A DNA stretch of 64,000 bases, taken from contig JAFGKK010000015.1 of the NCBI GenBank assembly GCA_016928575.1, forward strand, positions 108,498 to 172,497, given 5' to 3'. The DNA comes from Anaerolineales bacterium (lineage in GTDB: Bacteria > Chloroflexota > Anaerolineae > Anaerolineales > RBG-16-64-43). The position numbers were made by a program, and so were the translations under genes. Positions 15,928 through 57,197 of this stretch are shown one piece after another; position 1 is the first letter of the stretch; each line of letters begins with the position of its first letter. The notes beneath the pieces are model-generated. The model was given only the letters and a program-made list of their open reading frames with translations, was not told the DNA's origin and made no database searches.

Positions 15928-17520
15928 ATGATTCTGCTGATCGTTTTGCTCCTGCTGTCTCTCGGTGCCTTGGCGACGTTTTTTGTGCCGCCCGAAAAGC
16001 GGAGCGCGCATATCGCTGTCTCCCTGATCCCCTTGGCGGCTATGGGAATGCTGCTGCTTCCGATCCGGCTTCCCGCTTCCCTTTCGATCGCCTGGTCTCC
16101 GCCATCGCTGTTCCCCGATCCCCTCCTCTTTACCGCCGGCCCTTCCGCCGTGGTCTTCGCCGTGTTTTTTTGCGGTTTGTTGCTCCTGATCGAGTGGACT
16201 CGCCCGATGCGGCAAAGCCCCGGCCGGACGGCGCGTGCGGTTATCTATTGGTTGGCCGTCTGCGGAATCCTGGCCTGCTTTGCCGCCAATCCTCTGGCGG
16301 TGATCCTGGCCTGGGCGTTGATCGACATATCCTCTTTTCTTGCCGTGTTTTTTATGAAAAGCCCCGTGGTTATCGGGATGTCCGGAATCGCGCCTTCGGT
16401 GTCTCATGCTATGGGCATTTTTTCCGCCAACATGCTCGGTTCCGTATTCGTGTTCTTCTCGCAATTGGCGGGGTCGGGTTCGCTTGCCGGTTGGAGTCTG
16501 GCGGAAATCGCGTCTACTCCAAGCATATCCTCGGTCCTTTTTTTCTGCGGCATCCTCCTCCGCGTGGCGGTCTCCCCGCTTCAATTTTCCGTGTCCCACA
16601 TCCAAACCCCGTCCACGGGAACGGATGTCTTTTTGCGGGTCGTATCGCCGGCGGCGGGGCTTTGCCTTTTGGCGGGAATTTGGCCAGCGGCGGACTTTTC
16701 CACCAGGGGTGTACCCGTTTTTTTTTGGGCGGTCATTCCGCTTTTGGTTCTCCTGCTCGTCGGCGGCTGGCAATGGAGCGCTTCCGTTTCGGCGTACGGA
16801 CGTAGGGGGGATTTCCTTTACCTGCTGCCCTTGTTCATCCTGCTTTCTGCCGTCATTGCCCCCCGCACGGAAGGGCTATTCCTCGCCGGGGGCGGATTGT
16901 TGATCCTGGGCGGCGGGATCCTCCTGCTGTACCTTGGGTTTCTTCCCCACCGGCGGTGGACGGCGGCGTTTCTTGTCCTGCTTGGCTTGTTTTTCTCCGG
17001 CGCACCTTTCACTCCGCTTTCGGCTTGGAGTTCGTCCGTGTATCCCGGGTTGTTTTCCTTTTCCGGGTTTCCCGTTCTTCTGGCCTTGGCGGTAAGCCAG
17101 ATCTTCATCCTGGGCGCCCTCTTCCGCTCGGCTTTCGAATCCGTTGAGACGTTCCCGCCGAACGAGCCGCTGTTCCTGACCGTGTTTTCGATGGGGATGG
17201 CGGCCGCATTCTTTCTCCTCTGCTATCCCGGATGGCCCGGTCCGTCGTCCCTTCCTGCGTTCGCCGCTCCGGTACTCCTGCTGCTCGGCGGCGGATCCTG
17301 GATGGCGTTGGTCCGTCGCTTTCAACGGACGGAAACATCCCTGTTCCGGTTTCTGGTACAGACGTTGCGCCTGGAAGGCTTGCAGCGCGGCGTATCCCAA
17401 TTGTTCCGGGGCGTCGCCGGATTTTTCTCCGGAGTCGAGGGCTTTCTGAGCGGCGAAGGCGCCATGCTGTGGTCGCTCGGACTCGCTTTGCTGTTTTATC
17501 TGGTGCTTCGGGGAGGCTAG
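15928..17520 (+). CDS. Polytopic membrane protein, distantly NuoL/MrpA/MrpD-like (degenerate proton-antiporter-like fold, tentative)
   Basis: 530 aa with about 14 hydrophobic helices. Segments AANPLAVILAWALIDISSFLAVFFM and SPLQFSVSHIQTPSTGTDVFLRVVSPAAGLCLLA mirror the W-E-x-x-G-x-S-x-L-L and P-x-x-x-W-L-P-x-A-x-x-x-P-T-P-V-S-A-L regions of antiporter-like subunits, but with charged and conserved residues replaced. Extended -10 TGCTAGAAT at 15900-15908. Confidence 0.55.
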   Translation: MILLIVLLLLSLGALATFFVPPEKRSAHIAVSLIPLAAMGMLLLPIRLPASLSIAWSPPSLFPDPLLFTAGPSAVVFAVFFCGLLLLIEWTRPMRQSPGRTARAVIYWLAVCGILACFAANPLAVILAWALIDISSFLAVFFMKSPVVIGMSGIAPSVSHAMGIFSANMLGSVFVFFSQLAGSGSLAGWSLAEIASTPSISSVLFFCGILLRVAVSPLQFSVSHIQTPSTGTDVFLRVVSPAAGLCLLAGIWPAADFSTRGVPVFFWAVIPLLVLLLVGGWQWSASVSAYGRRGDFLYLLPLFILLSAVIAPRTEGLFLAGGGLLILGGGILLLYLGFLPHRRWTAAFLVLLGLFFSGAPFTPLSAWSSSVYPGLFSFSGFPVLLALAVSQIFILGALFRSAFESVETFPPNEPLFLTVFSMGMAAAFFLLCYPGWPGPSSLPAFAAPVLLLLGGGSWMALVRRFQRTETSLFRFLVQTLRLEGLQRGVSQLFRGVAGFFSGVEGFLSGEGAMLWSLGLALLFYLVLRGG

Positions 17521-17521
17521 G

Positions 17522-18124
17522 GTGCAGGGCTTTGTCTCTATCCTCGGCGGCCTTCTGCTCTTCGGCGGCGCTTGCGCGCTGACCCTTTTCCGGTCTTGGA
17601 AGCATGTGCTTCCGGCTTTCGCTCTGCAATCCCTGGGGGTTGGCCTGTCGGTCCTTCCGATTGTGGATCCGCCTGTGGCAATCGTTAAAGTCGTTGTCGG
17701 GTGGATTGCCGTTTCCTTGCTGGCCGTAACCCTTGCCCGCGAACCTCGCTCTCCCCTTGATGAGAAAACGGCGCCGATAGACCTTTTTTTTCGTTTCTCC
17801 CTCCTGTTATTCTTGTTTTCGTCCGTCCTTGCGTTGCTTCCCCAATTCGCAGGCCTTTTCCGCAACCCTCCGGCCGGATTGCTGTTCGTTTCCTGTTTTC
17901 TTATCGGGATTGGGTTGTTGAACCTCGGGCTTTCGGAGCACCCGCTCCGTTCTGGCGTCAGCCTGCTCGCTCTCCTGCAAGGATTTGAATTGGGATACCT
18001 TTGGATTGAGCAATCCTTGTTGGTGCTTGCCCTTCTGGCCGTTACGGATTTGGCGATAGTCATGACTCTGATCTTCCTATATACGCACGCCCTTTCCCCT
18101 TCCTCCGAAGAGGTCGCGCCGTGA
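17522..18124 (+). CDS. Membrane protein, possibly duplicated NuoK/MrpC-like (tentative)
   Basis: 200 aa, about 6 TM helices, GTG start 1 nt after the upstream stop. The second half LLNLGLSEHPLRSGVSLLALLQGFELGYLWIE resembles the NuoK GLEIMINA region. Confidence 0.5.
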   Translation: MQGFVSILGGLLLFGGACALTLFRSWKHVLPAFALQSLGVGLSVLPIVDPPVAIVKVVVGWIAVSLLAVTLAREPRSPLDEKTAPIDLFFRFSLLLFLFSSVLALLPQFAGLFRNPPAGLLFVSCFLIGIGLLNLGLSEHPLRSGVSLLALLQGFELGYLWIEQSLLVLALLAVTDLAIVMTLIFLYTHALSPSSEEVAP

Positions 18125-19548
18125 ACGCGCCGCTGGTTTTTATGGCCGCCCCCTTGGCCGCCGCCGTTCCGTCATATTTCCTTTTTCCGCTTCGACCGAG
18201 ATCGGTTTCGCTCTGTTCCTCCTTGTTTGCCGCCGGATTGGCTTGGTTGGCGTCCACGGTGCCGCTCGATTCGCCGTGGTCCCTCCTGGGTTTTGCCGTT
18301 CCTGTCGACGGATCCTTCTTGTTCCTGGGCCGGCCTTTCATTTTCGATCCCAGCCTGAAGTCGGCCGTCGTCTTTCTTTTCGCCGGCGGTGCGGCTCTGT
18401 TTTTGGGCAGCCTGGCCCTTCCACCCAGCCGCGGCATTGTGCCGGTCGGATTGGTCGTTCTCGGCTTGTTTTCCGCCTCCTTGTTCGTCCGACCCTTTCT
18501 CTTCGCCGCCTTCTTTCTTTTCCTTTCTGTTCTTTTTCTATCCCTGCTTTTGTCGGATCCCGCCTACCCCGCCCCGCGCGGCGCCGTTCGCTGGATCTGC
18601 TACTCGGCGCTCGGCACCATCATCCTCCTCCTGGCGGGTTCGGAGTTGTCGAGTTTGGAAAAACTCCCCGCGGGGGCGGGTGAGTTCCCGCCGCTTCTTT
18701 TCCTTCTTGGGCTTGGTTTCGGGTTGATCCTATCGTTTCCCCCGTTCCATTTCTGGCTTCCGGAGGTGGTCGACGATTCGCCCCCCTACAGCGTTTCGGC
18801 CATTCTCTCTTTGTACATCGGGGCGGCGGTTTTCTTTCTGCTCCGTTTTTTGGATGGTTTTTCCTGGCTGCGCCAATCTCCGGGAACCAGCCTCATCCTC
18901 GTGGTCGGGGGTTCCGGGATGTGCTTTACGGGCGCCCTGTTCTCTTTAATTCAGGAGCGGCTTGGCCGTTGCGTCGGGTACCTCTCGTTGTGCAACCTCG
19001 GGGCGATCCTGTTGGCCCTGTCCTTCTCCGATTCGCTTGGGGCTCAGGTTGCGGTTGTCCTTCTGGCCTCACGCGGCTTTTCCCTTCTGGTTTGGGGAAT
19101 CTCGTTCAACGCCCTCCGTCCCAAGCAGGCCGGGGATCGGATACAGGATTTGTTGGGGGTCGCCGCCGTTAGGCCGTTTGCTTTCTCCGCCGTATTAATT
19201 TCGGCCCTTTCGTTGGTCGGCGCCCCCGGGCTTCTTTCTTTTCCGCCGCTGATGGCTCTGTTGCTTTCCAACCAGTCTCATTATGGGCTTTCTTCCCTCG
19301 GCGGACTTCTTTCGCTTTCGATCTTTTTTTCAATCGCCTCCGGGTTGTTTTCTCTCTATCGGTTTGCCCGTCCAATGCTGGATTTTGCTGCCGCCACGCA
19401 ACTCACGGAAGAAAAAAGCAGGCTGCGTCGCAGCTTTTTTCTGGCCGCGCTCTTTATAATGCTTCTGTTTGGGCTTTTCCCACAGTTATATCTTCCCTTC
19501 GTGACCACCGCTGCGGCCGCCTTCTTTAATCTATCTGCAATACCTTAG
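18121..19548 (+). CDS. NuoN/NuoM/MrpD-family proton-conducting membrane transporter subunit-like protein
   Basis: 475 aa. FPPFHFWLPEVVDDSPPYSVSAILSLYIGAAVFFLLRF matches the hallmark PFHxWLPDxxxGxPxPVSAxLS motif. GTGA overlap with the upstream gene. Confidence 0.7.
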   Translation: MNAPLVFMAAPLAAAVPSYFLFPLRPRSVSLCSSLFAAGLAWLASTVPLDSPWSLLGFAVPVDGSFLFLGRPFIFDPSLKSAVVFLFAGGAALFLGSLALPPSRGIVPVGLVVLGLFSASLFVRPFLFAAFFLFLSVLFLSLLLSDPAYPAPRGAVRWICYSALGTIILLLAGSELSSLEKLPAGAGEFPPLLFLLGLGFGLILSFPPFHFWLPEVVDDSPPYSVSAILSLYIGAAVFFLLRFLDGFSWLRQSPGTSLILVVGGSGMCFTGALFSLIQERLGRCVGYLSLCNLGAILLALSFSDSLGAQVAVVLLASRGFSLLVWGISFNALRPKQAGDRIQDLLGVAAVRPFAFSAVLISALSLVGAPGLLSFPPLMALLLSNQSHYGLSSLGGLLSLSIFFSIASGLFSLYRFARPMLDFAAATQLTEEKSRLRRSFFLAALFIMLLFGLFPQLYLPFVTTAAAAFFNLSAIP

Positions 19549-52939: not shown

Positions 52940-53248
52940 TCAACCCTCCACGGATTCCTCGATGGTTTTTTCCACCGTGAACTCCCGGTATTTCTTTTCC
53001 AGGGAACGGAGGCCGGGAAGAAGAATGTTGGCAAGTCGACCGGCCGTCTGGCGCAGATCCTCCAAAAATTTTTCCTTTTGTTTTCCCTCCCATTCCGAAT
53101 CCAGGGACCTGGATATTTCCCGCAACGCGGCCTGATCGTTTTCCGCGGCGCTGCGGGATTCTCCGAACACGCGGGCGACGGCGTCCGCCTCGGGAGGGTG
53201 CACGCGGATGATTCTCCGGATGATTCTCGGGCTTTTGTAGACGGGCAT
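52940..53248 (-). CDS. WXG100 (ESAT-6-like) family small protein
   Basis: 102 aa. IRVHPPEADAVARVFGESRSAAEND...SRSLDSEWEGKQKEKFLEDLRQ shows a helix, W-x-G, helix layout and the length typical of WXG100 proteins. Confidence 0.6.
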   Translation of the reverse strand: MPVYKSPRIIRRIIRVHPPEADAVARVFGESRSAAENDQAALREISRSLDSEWEGKQKEKFLEDLRQTAGRLANILLPGLRSLEKKYREFTVEKTIEESVEG

Positions 53249-53314
53249 TATGTCGCCCCCTTTCGGTATGGATTATAATTCATCCGGCGCACAATTGCTT
53301 CGCGCCCGGGGGGG

Positions 53315-54691
53315 ATGCCGATGACCAGAATTCGAATGGATACCGACCTGTTGTTCAAGAACGCCGATGCGATTCATGCCATCGGCGAACGTTTCCGCCG
53401 CGATGCCGACAGCCTCCTGTCGAGGATTCAAGGCGTCGGAAGCGCCTGTCCGGACCTCGCGGCGTCGGCACGCAAAGACGCCCTCGAAGCGCAGCAGTGG
53501 ATTCTCTCCCTAAGCCTTCGGCTGGAAACGCATGCCGAGATGCTCGCGGCGCTGGCCAATGCGTTTAAATCGATCGACGAGGAAACCATCGCCGCGCTGA
53601 TCGCCGCGCAAGGGGAAGGATGGTTCCGGCAGACGTACTTCCCCGTTCTCTTGTATCCGGATCCGGAAGGGTTCACTCCGTATTACCTCCCCCAGACGCG
53701 GGTTTGGCTTTCGGATTGGGTGCCGGTATATGTGCAGGGAGTGCAGGGATTGCGACAAGTCGCCACCTATCACACCGGCCGTCTGGTGACGAATGTCGTC
53801 GGCGAATGGACGGATCCCCGAACGGGAAAAGGATATTATGTGGCGGACTTGGGCGGCGGTCAGTTCGTGTACATTCCGAAATCGAAGAACAGCGCTGCCG
53901 TCGATTTATCGCTCATTCCGAACCGGGAAGGATCCTTCACGGACGGCCAGCAGGTCGCCGATCCCCCGTTGCCGCCGCCGTTCGGACCCGATGGACGGGA
54001 TCCTGCGTGGTATCTGCCCGGAGATCCATGGCAAAACCTGATCCTCGGCAACATGGATATCGACGGAATTGGCGGCGGACGCTTTCCGGACATTCCGCAC
54101 ACCAACCTGTGCGGCGAGCTGTCCGTCCTCTTCGCTGTCGGGGAAACGGATTTGGAAGGGGGCCTCTCGCGGTTTGCGCAACTTCGGGGTCTCGGGTATT
54201 GGAACAGCGACGGGACCAAGACGGAGTATCACGGCACCCAGGTTCTGCAGAACACCCATCATACGACCAGCGCCTATGATCTCAAGCGTTTATTCGAGGA
54301 ATGCGGATACGAGGCCCAGATCTCAAACGGCGGATTGCCTCCGCCGGATGTGCTGGCGGCAAAGATCCAATCCGGCCATTCCGTGGTGGTCCTGACCGAA
54401 TTGGATACCCGGCGGGAAATTTTCCTTCCGTCGGCGAATTCCTTCGGCCCCAATCCCACCTATGGGCAGCTGGTGCCCGGCGCCGCACCGCAGACCCCGG
54501 GCCGAGCCGCGCACTGGGTGACGGTGACGGACGTGTTCCAAGACGGCGGCGGGGATATCTTTGTGGAGGTGTTCAATCCCTACAGCGGATCCAAGGAGAC
54601 GTACACATGGGACACGTTCGTAAAAACCTGCCAACAGCCCGGATCCCAGACGGCTGGAAGCTATACCTATGTTGAAGCGGTCAAACCATGA
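53315..54691 (+). CDS. Multidomain protein: WXG100-like helical N-domain, beta-rich middle, papain-like (C39-like) Cys/His C-domain
   Basis: N-terminus IRMDTDLLFKNADAIHAIGERFRRDADSLL...ANAFKSIDEE. C-terminus NLCGELS (Cys266), AAHWVTVTDV (His400), EVFNPYSG (Asn421), in the order expected for a papain-fold peptidase. Confidence 0.55.
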   Translation: MPMTRIRMDTDLLFKNADAIHAIGERFRRDADSLLSRIQGVGSACPDLAASARKDALEAQQWILSLSLRLETHAEMLAALANAFKSIDEETIAALIAAQGEGWFRQTYFPVLLYPDPEGFTPYYLPQTRVWLSDWVPVYVQGVQGLRQVATYHTGRLVTNVVGEWTDPRTGKGYYVADLGGGQFVYIPKSKNSAAVDLSLIPNREGSFTDGQQVADPPLPPPFGPDGRDPAWYLPGDPWQNLILGNMDIDGIGGGRFPDIPHTNLCGELSVLFAVGETDLEGGLSRFAQLRGLGYWNSDGTKTEYHGTQVLQNTHHTTSAYDLKRLFEECGYEAQISNGGLPPPDVLAAKIQSGHSVVVLTELDTRREIFLPSANSFGPNPTYGQLVPGAAPQTPGRAAHWVTVTDVFQDGGGDIFVEVFNPYSGSKETYTWDTFVKTCQQPGSQTAGSYTYVEAVKP

Positions 54692-54727
54692 TCCGCCGGA
54701 GGCAGCCTGCCGCGCGGTAGATTATTG

Positions 54728-54976
54728 TCATTGTTCCCGATCGATCAGCGCGTAGATCTCGGCTTTTCGGGATACCCCAAACTTGCTTAATACATGACGG
54801 ACGTGAGTTTTTACCGTTTCGGGAGAGACCACCAAGCTTTCCGCCATTTCCCGGTTTGTCTGTCCGGCGGCGATAAGGGTAAGAACTTCACGTTCACGCC
54901 GGGTTAATGCCGAATAGGAAACGACGGCAGAATCACGAAGTGCACTCTGGGGGAATTGTTCAATAATCCTTTCCAT
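54728..54976 (-). CDS. Stand-alone LuxR/GerE-type helix-turn-helix transcription regulator
   Basis: ATG at 54976 gives MERIIEQF...LTRREREVLTLIAAGQTNREMAESLVVSPETVKTHVRHVLSKFGV. 82 aa, with no receiver or ligand domain. Confidence 0.85.
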   Translation of the reverse strand: MERIIEQFPQSALRDSAVVSYSALTRREREVLTLIAAGQTNREMAESLVVSPETVKTHVRHVLSKFGVSRKAEIYALIDREQ

Positions 54977-55017
54977 GGGTTCCTCGTTTTTTAGGAAGGA
55001 GATGCTGAGGTTCGGGG

Positions 55018-55047
55018 ATAATAGCACATTTGTTCTATTGCTGTCAA
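55018..55047 (-). promoter_or_regulatory. Sigma70-type promoter for the LuxR-type gene
   Basis: Minus strand: TTGACA (55047-55042), 18 nt spacer, TATTAT (55023-55018). Confidence 0.5.
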
Positions 55048-55397: not shown

Positions 55398-55730
55398 CCA
55401 TTCGAAAATCGAAAAAACGTGGATGAGGACGAGTACGCGGCGAGCGCTCCTCAGAGAGCCGGCGTAAAGGTGGAAGACCGGCGGCGGCGCGAACGCGGAA
55501 TGGACCTCGGAGTTGCAGGGCGAAAGCAGGCGCAAGATCCCGCCATAGCCTGAGCCGGATCCGCCCCCGTTACCGGGCGGGGGGGGCGCCGGGAAACCGG
55601 TAACCCCGACGAGTGAGGCTGGCAAACCAAACCCTGCACATTCACGCAGGGTTTTGCGTTTCCGACACCGGCCGAACTTGGGTGGCACCGCGAGCGAAAC
55701 GCCCGTCCCAAGAAGGAGACGGGCGTTTTT
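55398..55730 (+). promoter_or_regulatory. T-box riboswitch leader, tryptophan specifier (UGG)
   Basis: Stem I elements: ATGA/AGTA (55422-55435) and AGAGAG (55453-55458). Specifier context GAA-TGG-A (TGG at 55501-55503). T-box sequence AACTTGGGTGGCACCGCG (55675-55692). Terminator AACGCCCGTC...GACGGGCGTTTTT (55698-55730) overlaps the antiterminator 3' half. Confidence 0.85.
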
Positions 55731-55820
55731 AATTTCCGGCGGACGGATGGGATTCCTCCGTTGCGCCGAACGGAAACCATCATCCGCCGATCGACCCATT
55801 TTTGCTCCAGGAGGAGACGC

Positions 55821-57197
55821 ATGGAAACAACCAAATTCCTGTTGGGGGAAAAAGACGTCCCGAAAGCTTGGTATAACATCCAAGCCGATCTGCCCTTTAA
55901 AATCCCGCCCCCGCTTCACCCCGTCACACTGGAACCGATCACGCCGGATTTCCTCTCGGTGCTTTTCCCGATGAGTCTGATCATGCAGGAGGTCAGCCCC
56001 GAGCGGTACATCGAAATTCCGGAACCCGTCCGCTACATTTATGAACTCTGGCGACCGACGCCGTTGATCCGCGCTCGGAGGCTGGAGCTTGCGCTCGATA
56101 CGCCGGCGCACATCTACTTCAAATACGAAGGCGCCAGCCCGGTGGGATCGCACAAGCCGAACACCGCCGTGGCGCAGGCGTTCTTCAACAAGGAAGCCGG
56201 GACCAAGGCGCTCACGACCGAAACCGGCGCCGGCCAGTGGGGTTCGGCGCTGGCGATGGCCTGCCACTTCTTCGACATCGATTTGGAAGTGTACATGGTC
56301 AAGGTCTCCTACCAGCAAAAACCTTACCGCCGGGTATTAATGGAGAACTTCGGAGCCAGAGTTTTTGCCAGCCCGACGGACCTCACCGATTTCGGCCGCG
56401 CGTTGCTGGCCAAGGATCCGCAGAGCGGGGGATCGCTGGGCGTCGCCATTTCCGAGGCGGTGGAAGTGGCCGCCAAATCCAACGGGGCGAAGAAGTATTC
56501 CCTCGGCTCCGTGCTCAACCACGTTCTGATGCACCAGACCGTGGTCGGCGAAGAAGCCCTGAAACAGATGGAACTGGCCGGCGAGTATCCGGATGTGGTG
56601 ATCGGATGCGTCGGCGGCGGGAGTAACTTTGCCGGGTTCTCCTTCCCCTTCCTGCGCGAGAACCTCACCAAGGGTAAAAAGACGCGCGTGATCGCCGTGG
56701 AGCCGCTGGCCTGCCCGACGATGACCAAAGGGCTGTACGCCTACGATTACGGCGATACCGCCAAAATGGCGCCGGTGGTGAAGATGGAAACGCTCGGCCA
56801 CGGATTCATTCCGCCCGCGATTCACGCGGGAGGCCTGCGCTACCACGGCATGGCGCCGCTGGTTTCCGGCCTGCACGCCAACAAATACATCGAAGCCGTG
56901 GCGGTCAAGCAGGTTCCCGTCTTTGAAGCGGCCAAACTGTTCCTGGAAACGGAGGGCATGCTCCCGGCTCCGGAAACCGCGCACGCCATCCGCGTGACCA
57001 TCGACGAAGCCCTGGAAGCCAAGCAGAAAGGCCAGAAGAAGGTTATTGCATTCAACTTCTCCGGCCATGGTTTCCTCGACCTCGGCGCCTATGACGTCTT
57101 CAATCACGGCGGATTGGAGGATTTTGAATACCCGGCCGAGGCGGTCGCCGAGGCGGAGAAAGACTTGCCGAAGGTTAATAATGGGGCAATAGCGTAA
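55821..57197 (+). CDS. trpB: TrpB2-type tryptophan synthase beta-like PLP enzyme
   Basis: ATG at 55821 (GGAGGAG RBS) gives [34 protein letters not shown], the TrpB2 N-terminal signature. [19 protein letters not shown] (PLP lysine), GGGSNFAG. 458 aa. Confidence 0.92.

Follow-up and report, generated by a model that had tools for sequence, protein, structure and literature searches.

How does a gene pair of the type used by type VII secretion systems (T7SS) come to lie in an Anaerolineales genome with no secretion ATPase beside it? The question is raised by two divergent genes on a stretch of 64,000 nucleotides (the window) from the Anaerolineales contig JAFGKK010000015.1, one coding for a 102-aa WXG100-family protein and the other for a 458-aa protein that ends in a cysteine peptidase-like domain. 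An earlier reading made from the sequence alone (the sequence-only reading) had proposed an orphan T7SS effector/helper module or, failing that, a new use of the WXG fold. T7SS biology is founded on Actinomycetota and Bacillota, and to our knowledge the T7SS of Chloroflexota are known solely through sequence surveys. Our analysis indicates that the two genes probably encode a T7SS helper and its substrate, the latter a cell-wall-directed cysteine peptidase, and that the pair was probably stranded by a lineage-specific deletion. The positions of all features are collected in Table 1.

The 458-aa protein belongs to a family of 41 homologue clusters, all of about 455 aa, with 38-70% identity and without a Pfam domain, which come exclusively from Anaerolineales metagenome-assembled genomes or metagenomes. 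Because these clusters keep a length of ~455 aa and have orthologous small genes beside them, both open reading frames (ORFs) are genuine genes and not chance reading frames. They were found exactly where the sequence-only reading had placed them, with the peptides that it had quoted. In GenBank the small protein is annotated as 'WXG100 family type VII secretion target', and the large one starts at Met3 and is therefore 456 aa long ('hypothetical protein JW929_02920', MBN1438337.1; P0001 in our set).

The small protein matched WXG100 by profile as well as by fold, its single-sequence scores lying below the curated cut-offs. When searched as a single sequence it matched Pfam WXG100 with E=3.5e-5 (24.4 bits; gathering cut-off (GA) 27.3) and TIGR03930 with E=1.4e-5 (25.2 bits; cut-off 44.85). 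A profile of 9 orthologues reached Bacillus anthracis EsxB with E=6.8e-6, Staphylococcus aureus EsxA with 4e-4 and G. thermodenitrificans EsxA with 2e-3, in each case with the WxG in register. W53 and G55 are unchanged in this alignment, and an N-terminal V-H-P-P-E-A motif is likewise invariant. The orthologues share 45-58% identity, each of them adjoining a homologue of the large protein. The AlphaFold2 (AF2) model, built from only 2 sequences (predicted local distance difference test score (pLDDT) 84.9), is a hairpin in which the WxG loop separates helix 19-49 from helix 56-88, and its neighbours in the PDB as found with Foldseek are EsxA, EsxB and EsxEF (prob ~1.0, TMt 0.6-0.89). The small protein is likely a helper or co-substrate of the 458-aa protein.

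The same protein carries conserved terminal extensions, a basic one at residues 8-16 ('RIIRRIIRV-HPPEA') and an acidic tail at residues 92-100 ('TVEKTIEE'). AF2 pairs the two as beta strands beside the hairpin, with moderate confidence only; such paired terminal strands are unusual among WXG100 proteins. A Pfam Imm58 match on the small protein (E=0.043) was dismissed as noise.

When the single 458-aa sequence was compared with Pfam and NCBIfam no match was obtained, and a PDB sequence search with it returned noise only (TenA, E=0.1). The AF2 model built with 27 homologues (pLDDT 83.2, predicted template modelling score (pTM) 0.70) consists of three modules, namely a hairpin of helices 10-40 and 46-85, a beta domain (residues 120-195) and an alpha/beta domain (~240-458). 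The hairpin is matched by B. anthracis EsxB in Foldseek (prob 1.0, TMt 0.83-0.89). The large-family profile (alignment A1) also finds EsxB, with E=0.003 over positions 1-87, as well as Mycobacterium tuberculosis CFP-10 with E=0.1, and several family members and remote relatives match Pfam WXG100/EspC. This bears out the earlier description of a helical, WXG100-like N-terminal module that lacks a WxG, which is indeed absent from this domain. No signal peptide was found, in that a hydrophobic N-terminus is not visible in the 458-aa sequence. LXG (PF04740, ~200 aa) gave no match in the window protein or in the 27 family members, and the N-domain measures ~100 aa.

Helix 2 of the N-domain ends in an [F/Y]xxxD motif, F84xxxD88. 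Position 84 is F or Y in 25 of the 27 family members (F in most), D88 is invariant, and an F/Y-xxx-D/E pattern was present in all remote N-domain homologues (44/44). In position and form the motif matches EspB 81-YGEVDEEAATAL-92 (PMC3935865). The segment also resembles the HxxxD/ExxhxxxH pattern, and comparable signals have been described in EspB, EspC and PE25 (PMC3935865). F84xxxD88 lies where the T7SS YxxxD/E signal lies and takes the same form. One partner carries the WxG and the other the [F/Y]xxxD, and the two therefore show the layout of an ESAT-6/CFP-10-type pair. We propose that the small protein binds the N-domain of the 458-aa protein, which would give a four-helix bundle in which the WxG loop of the helper is set beside the [F/Y]xxxD of the cargo. 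These could together act as a composite signal for an EssC/EccC ATPase, and the complex would then be exported through the T7SS. Remote homologues of the N-domain bear other C-terminal cargo, for instance DUF6973.

The middle of the large protein had been described as beta-rich and possibly SH3-like, and Foldseek indeed pointed to a resemblance to SH3b domains. Its best match was to the wall-binding SH3b module of the endolysin from phage 2638A (7aqh; prob 0.98, E=0.04, TMt 0.55), with further matches to SlpX and Ly7917. Endolysins, amidases and an 'SH3 domain protein' make up most of its structural neighbours among viral models (BFVD). The remote homologue P0181 shares the three-part architecture and matches Pfam SH3_3 with 27.9 bits (GA 27). 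From the predicted structure we assign an SH3b-like fold to the middle domain with moderate confidence.

For the C-terminal domain, the best PDB matches in Foldseek were the staphopains (1cv8, E=1.4e-5, TMt 0.61; 8oig, 5e-5; 1y4h), followed by the phytochelatin-synthase-like 6tho, CtaG and plant papain-family enzymes (bromelain). A profile of this domain was searched against 1.84 billion representatives and yielded 206 proteins at E<=1e-3; 65 of the 147 listed matches outside alignment A1 could be aligned across the domain. Cys266, His400 and Asn421 are invariant in these remote homologues (65/65) and in the family (27/27), while Gly267 is found in 64 and Pro422 in 61 of the 65. The three residues occupy canonical secondary-structure positions, and the Cys-His-Asn order noticed in the sequence was correct down to the codons. 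Asp406 and Asp410 are not conserved in the remote homologues and were ruled out as third catalytic residue. The domain had been called C39-like or papain-fold. The papain fold stood, with staphopain as the nearest solved structure, but a C39 membership was not detectable: Peptidase C39 (PF03412) and C39_2 (PF13529) gave no match at E<=1 in the window protein or the 27 members, and the C-domain matches no other Pfam or NCBIfam family. The remote protein P0224 has a C39_2 match, in a region other than the homologous C-domain. Taking model and conservation together, the C-domain is predicted to be a generic papain fold with a Cys-His-Asn triad.

Remote homologues of the C-domain are fused to LysM, SH3_3 or Ig-like domains, to a Sec signal peptide or to a WXG100-like N-domain. 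Because the fusion partners vary in this way, the N- and C-domain modules are both mobile, and the C-domain appears to work outside the cytoplasm. Wall targeting is supported by the SH3b-like fold, by these LysM, SH3_3, Ig-like and signal-peptide fusions and by the endolysin-rich viral structural neighbours. Once exported, the SH3b-like domain would hold the Cys266/His400/Asn421 hydrolase on the cell wall, and the hydrolase would act beyond the membrane, most probably on cell-wall peptides, be it on the wall of the producer or on that of a competitor.

To place the pair in its genomic context, relatives were collected by exact-protein look-up, from GTDB species representatives and from JGI metagenomes, and every Anaerolineales contig that continues beyond the large gene on its 3' side was compared. 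These 23 contigs (~16 lineages) range from the closest relatives L007, L009 and L011 (66-70% identity) to the most distant, L018 (37%). All show the order HMGL-like gene, small gene (-), large gene (+), EssC (-), WXG100 (-), one or two small ORFs and YukD-FHA (+). Wherever a locus includes the region upstream of the large gene, the small WXG100 gene is conserved there in divergent orientation; joint conservation of the pair, a check that the sequence-only reading had suggested, thus holds. The ATPase of the relatives is a full-length match to TIGR03928 EssC (E=3e-209; EccCa 1e-140, EccCb 1e-91), and a neighbouring 92-aa protein exceeds the WXG100 cut-off.

In L004, L007 and L015 the T7SS block is followed by a GerE gene (-), a conserved leader and a TrpB-like gene. 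The same three elements lie 3' of the 458-aa gene in the window, and the HMGL gene upstream is kept as well. By tblastx, window positions 54008-54685 correspond to L004 10688-11359 and window positions 54743-54988 to L004 19675-19920; the equivalent junction points in L007 are 11365 and 20308. The window is short of ~8.3 kb compared with L004 and of ~8.9 kb compared with L007 (overall ~8.2-8.9 kb), and the site of the core, which in relatives comprises EssC, WXG100 genes, small ORFs, YukD-FHA and variable cargo, is reduced to the 36 bp between two stop codons. When the EssC, WXG100, YukD and FHA proteins of the relatives were searched against the 64-kb window with tblastn, nothing was found beyond the pair, and a hidden Markov model (HMM) search of all six-frame window ORFs with the two family profiles recovered only the pair itself. 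Within the reach of these searches this bears out the earlier remark that no EssC-type ATPase lies in the window. Among the 120 best EssC homologues, almost none of which are named, none carries a JW929 tag or an MBN14... accession.

A neighbour-joining (NJ) tree groups the window protein as sister of (P0002,(P0004,P0006)), inside T7SS-bearing lineages. Since it nests in T7SS-bearing clades, a loss of the T7SS core on the branch of the window is more parsimonious than a gain by the relatives. In related Anaerolineales the pair is a constant component of a compact T7SS locus and directly abuts essC, whereas here a core of 8-9 kb has probably been lost in a clean deletion that runs from the stop codon of the peptidase gene to gerE, with both genes left intact. 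Such a deletion would explain the odd feature of the locus, its absent ATPase. The pair looks like an orphan because this genome is without the core that directly follows it in its Anaerolineales relatives. Of the earlier proposal, the T7SS-type pair was therefore retained, the orphan status holds only by way of the lost core, and a new use of the WXG fold found no support.

The missing core could also be an artefact of assembly or binning (a mis-join, a collapse or a minority deletion variant), in which case the organism would have the full locus. The sequence is a metagenome-assembled contig, and the sole independent assembly, the Logan contig L010 (2.2 kb), ends inside the 458-aa gene before reaching the junction. 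We nevertheless regard this as improbable, in that both flanks are true syntenic neighbours and the flanking ORFs end normally at 36 bp from each other, as in a genuine indel and unlike what a chimeric join would give. Moreover, no collapse-prone repeat was seen at the junction, and a palindromic element that occurs there in some relatives is absent from the window.

This element, a repetitive extragenic palindrome (REP)-like sequence (GTAGGGTGGGTTGARGC ... GCTTCAACCCACCCTAC), is found in several relatives in the stretch that separates the peptidase gene from essC. L004 and L015 have a second direct copy at the far end of the core, and the element is also present in L017, L021, L022 and L025. 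The direct repeats that bracket the core of L004 and L015 could mediate its excision. We do not claim this as the mechanism of the deletion in the window, since the element is absent from the window and from its closest relatives. The Anaerolineales T7SS loci (L001-L018) look minimal. They comprise WXG100 genes, an EssC-like ATPase that begins with a transmembrane region but lacks an FHA domain, and a YukD-FHA fusion encoded separately. No recognisable EssB, EsaA, EssA or EccB/D/E was seen in these loci. A conserved 411-aa protein without family match occurs in L007, L011, L016 and L018.

We next consider the state of the pair after the presumed loss of the core. In 84 alignment columns the 26 remaining sequences show at least 90% conservation, and the 458-aa protein agrees with 83 of these, as good a score as that of the T7SS-bearing relatives. 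Neither ORF is truncated, and triad, WxG and FxxxD have all been preserved. On the alignments there is no sign of decay in the pair. At 70% amino-acid identity synonymous sites in the 458-aa family are saturated, which makes the ratio of nonsynonymous to synonymous substitutions (dN/dS) unsuitable here. That the pair is a functionless remnant decaying after loss of the T7SS would fit the absence of the core from 64 kb and a somewhat longer terminal branch of the window protein (0.17 vs ~0.13-0.14 in the sister sequences), but the full-length ORFs, the conserved columns and the intact motifs make it an unlikely explanation.

Several observations weigh against a T7SS pair stranded by deletion. 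An intact pair fits uneasily with a stranded and useless module, unless the deletion was recent or a T7SS is present elsewhere. The single-sequence scores of the small protein fall under the curated WXG100 cut-offs, and neither Pfam SH3_3 nor any of the peptidase families gives a match to the window protein. Finally, a distant homologue in Chloroflexia (L019) stands apart from any EssC, which shows that the linkage is not obligatory. This homologue (L019 9899-11317) is 33% identical and has the same three-part architecture; its neighbours are housekeeping genes (RecO-like, site-2-protease-like, GIY-YIG), and no EssC or small WXG partner lies within 10 kb.

The intactness of the pair may reflect a recent deletion, a second T7SS elsewhere or an EssC-independent use. 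A further reading is that the pair functions in this organism with no T7SS at all, the WXG fold being put to a new use, for instance as a cytoplasmic peptidase with a regulatory partner. An intact pair without its core, and the Chloroflexia homologue with neither EssC nor small partner nearby, would be in keeping with such a function. In all close relatives, however, the pair is found together with essC. Conservation of the export-type motif and the extracytoplasmic nature of the other fusion partners of the C-domain (LysM, SH3_3, Ig-like, signal peptide) also speak against this reading, so that we consider it highly improbable. It is also rather unlikely that the 458-aa protein is a self-exported wall hydrolase with an EssH-like function, integral to a minimal Chloroflexota T7SS, and that the pair is still functional and under selection here, after loss of the local essC block, through an unlinked T7SS or an EssC-independent route. 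If this were true, the pair would be a natural experiment on T7SS substrates that outlive their machinery.

Within the explanation that we favour, a T7SS substrate/helper pair stranded by deletion, the role of the 458-aa protein can be read in two ways. In the first, it would be an interbacterial T7SS toxin of the polymorphic type that acts on the walls of competitors, with the small WXG100 protein as its export adaptor. The N- and C-domains recombine differently in remote homologues, as they do in polymorphic toxins, and WXG-fused papain-like toxins have been catalogued, Chloroflexi included (PMC3482391). The 458-aa protein also diverges much faster than EssC (37% vs 74% identity in L018). 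In addition, genes for remote C-domain proteins are directly followed by genes for PD40 beta-propeller lipoproteins, which are candidate immunity proteins (L035 has two as tandem paralogues, L033 has one), and the T7SS loci of L004 and L017 contain a trio of a second small-WXG paralogue, an FxxxD protein and a PD40 protein. On the other hand, the gap between the large gene and essC is just 2-64 bp in several loci (L007, L001, L004), which leaves no space for an immunity gene. Length and architecture are uniform over the 41 clusters, without C-terminal swapping, and the large gene is present in single copy at a constant place beside essC, unlike the variable cassettes that lie further downstream. 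That no immunity-like ORF follows the 458-aa gene, as the sequence-only reading had remarked, is true but applies to the whole family, since essC comes next in relatives, and is not peculiar to the window. We therefore regard a toxin role as a tentative possibility.

The trio consists of a 100-aa small-WXG paralogue, a 275-aa FxxxD protein and a 290-aa PD40 protein and might represent an effector/immunity pattern. The 275-aa protein has a weak Peptidase_C39_2 match (E=0.003), and comparison of the large family with the L004 copy by hhalign gave a weak match of helix 2 and the FxxxD only (prob 17%).

In the second way of reading its role, the 458-aa protein would be a wall-remodelling accessory of the T7SS, analogous to EssH, which is itself exported and opens the wall of the producer. 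EssH is a CHAP hydrolase of the S. aureus T7SS locus that is needed for secretion (PMC13059805; PMC10765036), and it sets a precedent for a T7SS with a Cys/His wall hydrolase of its own. The constant place beside essC in all Anaerolineales loci examined, without an immunity gene, argues for such a role, as does the combination of an SH3b-like domain with a Cys/His hydrolase, a layout typical of autolysins and endolysins. The 458-aa protein has neither a CHAP domain nor a Sec signal, however, and a component that builds the channel would need export via that very channel. For a core part its sequences diverge strongly, and its retention after loss of the core would be left unexplained. An accessory role is likewise no more than tentative.

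Table 1. Positions of the gene pair, its domains and motifs, the junction and neighbouring or comparable elements (positions refer to the window unless a contig is named).
Feature	Position	Strand	Basis or remark
Small gene, 102-aa WXG100-family protein	52940..53248	-	ORF with Pfam/NCBIfam profile and fold
W53-x-G55 motif	53084-53092	-	S-E-W53-E-G55 within loop 50-55, between helices
Divergent intergenic region, presumed promoters of both genes	53249..53314 (66 bp)		ORF coordinates; same arrangement in all relatives
Large gene, 458-aa protein	53315..54691	+	ORF with homologue family
N-terminal WXG100-like hairpin, residues 1 to ~100	53315..53614	+	AF2, Foldseek, profile
Export-type motif [F/Y]xxxD, F84-K-S-I-D88-E-E-T-I-A-A-L95	53564..53599	+	End of helix 2
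Beta-rich SH3b-like domain, residues ~118-196	53666..53902	+	AF2 strands 120-195, pLDDT ~81-88; Foldseek
Papain-fold cysteine peptidase-like domain, residues ~240-458	54032..54688	+	AF2, mostly pLDDT >90; Foldseek
Predicted catalytic Cys266	54110-54112	+	N-terminus of helix 266-274 (AF2)
Predicted catalytic His400	54512-54514	+	Within strand 397-409 (AF2)
Predicted catalytic Asn421	54575-54577	+	End of strand 415-421 (AF2)
Junction, 458-aa stop to GerE stop	54692..54727 (36 bp)		Site of T7SS core in relatives
GerE/LuxR-type helix-turn-helix gene, downstream syntenic flank	54728..55027	-	Pfam GerE E=3.5e-18
Promoter-like TTGACA-18-TATTAT (11/12)	55047-55018	-	Inside longer GerE ORF
REP-like palindromic element, L004	11371-11439 and 19497-19569		Second direct copy at far end of core
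REP-like palindromic element, L015	11666-11730 and 18195-18212		Second direct copy at far end of core
Second cargo set / PD40-linked loci	L004 16287-18716; L017 12606-15009; L033 1293-5430; L035 75-4299		

The gene next to the pair was confirmed by its Pfam match as the convergent GerE/LuxR-type helix-turn-helix gene that had been read there. Its ORF is 99 aa long, and the true start is probably Met18 (nt 54976), which would give a protein of 82 aa; the orthologues 3' of the T7SS block in L004, L007 and L015 have 81-84 aa. A sigma-70 consensus was sought in the 66-bp region between the two divergent genes and none was found. Further downstream, a T-box leader (RF00230) was recognised at 55411-55713 (+) over the full length of the model (61.7 bits, E=1e-12, under the gathering score of 93). 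It lies upstream of the TrpB-like PALP gene (ORF 55761-57197), and its DNA is conserved at the same position in L004 and L007. Elsewhere in the window, positions 16001-19500 show an AT skew of -0.4 to -0.5 (~50 A vs 150 T per 500 nt), which is ordinary and is explained by two very hydrophobic, Leu/Phe-rich polytopic membrane proteins encoded on the (+) strand (15928-17520 and 18121-19548).

These results point to a compact T7SS in Anaerolineales that would have an unannotated papain-fold enzyme with an SH3b-like domain as its one constant large substrate. The 458-aa family offers a testable candidate for how a T7SS handles the cell wall, its own or that of a competitor. They also define, through the 206 representatives of the C-domain search, a widespread peptidase domain without Pfam entry. 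The window itself may serve as a cautionary case, in which a seeming orphan module proved, after a check of synteny, to be the probable remnant of a deletion.

WXG100 proteins in Chloroflexi have already been noted (PMC3935865; PMC10765036). The pair resembles the WXG100 heterodimers, such as ESAT-6/CFP-10, B. anthracis EsxB and S. aureus EsxA, in the hairpin of ~100 aa with WxG in the turn, in a partner domain with [F/Y]xxxD at the end of helix 2, in the adjacency of the genes and in the linkage of its orthologues to EssC/EccC. In contrast to these heterodimers, one partner is here no free protein of 100 aa but forms the N-domain of a 458-aa enzyme, the genes are divergent instead of co-directional, no ATPase is present in the window, and both ends of the small protein bear conserved extensions (VHPPEA and the acidic tail).

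Like the larger T7SS cargo (mycobacterial PE-LipY and EspB, WXG-fused toxins and LXG toxins), the 458-aa protein combines a helical domain for export at its N-terminus with a hydrolase at its C-terminus. It also has a small helical protein encoded by the neighbouring gene as its partner, and an export motif near residue 80-95, as in EspB, EspC, PE25 and LipY. Unlike the LXG toxins with their Lap/EsxBCD helpers, it has no LXG domain and one helper in place of two or three. It also differs from polymorphic WXG/LXG toxins, in that there is no adjacent immunity gene and no C-terminal polymorphism among the orthologues. The combination of WXG N-domains with papain-like C-domains in T7SS toxins was catalogued in 2012 by Zhang et al., Chloroflexi included (PMC3482391). 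The peptidase domain described here, however, matches none of Tox-PL1, Tox-PL-2 and Tox-PLC39 in Pfam, and its signature is N-x-C ... H-W ... N-P, as against the NC-H-DxQ of Tox-PL1.

EssH of the S. aureus T7SSb is similar in being a Cys/His hydrolase of the papain superfamily at the edge of a T7SS locus, with a non-catalytic N-terminal part. This edge position recurs in all members, and a role at the wall is plausible. Whereas a Sec signal and a CHAP domain make up EssH, the 458-aa protein consists of an export domain of WXG100-like type, an SH3b-like domain and a domain of another, unannotated papain-fold family. Among enzymes of solved structure it is most like staphopain (peptidase C47) and clan CA, with 1cv8 as best structural match, the order Cys-His-Asn and the Cys at the N-terminus of a helix. 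It differs from these in that identity is 9-11%, with no sequence-profile match and no prodomain, and in that the conserved His262 and Asn264 precede Cys266 where a Gln oxyanion residue is usual in clan CA. What appears to be new in comparison with all these systems is an unannotated papain-fold family (N-x-C...H-W...N-P) that is joined to WXG100-like and SH3b-like domains and has essC as its constant neighbour.

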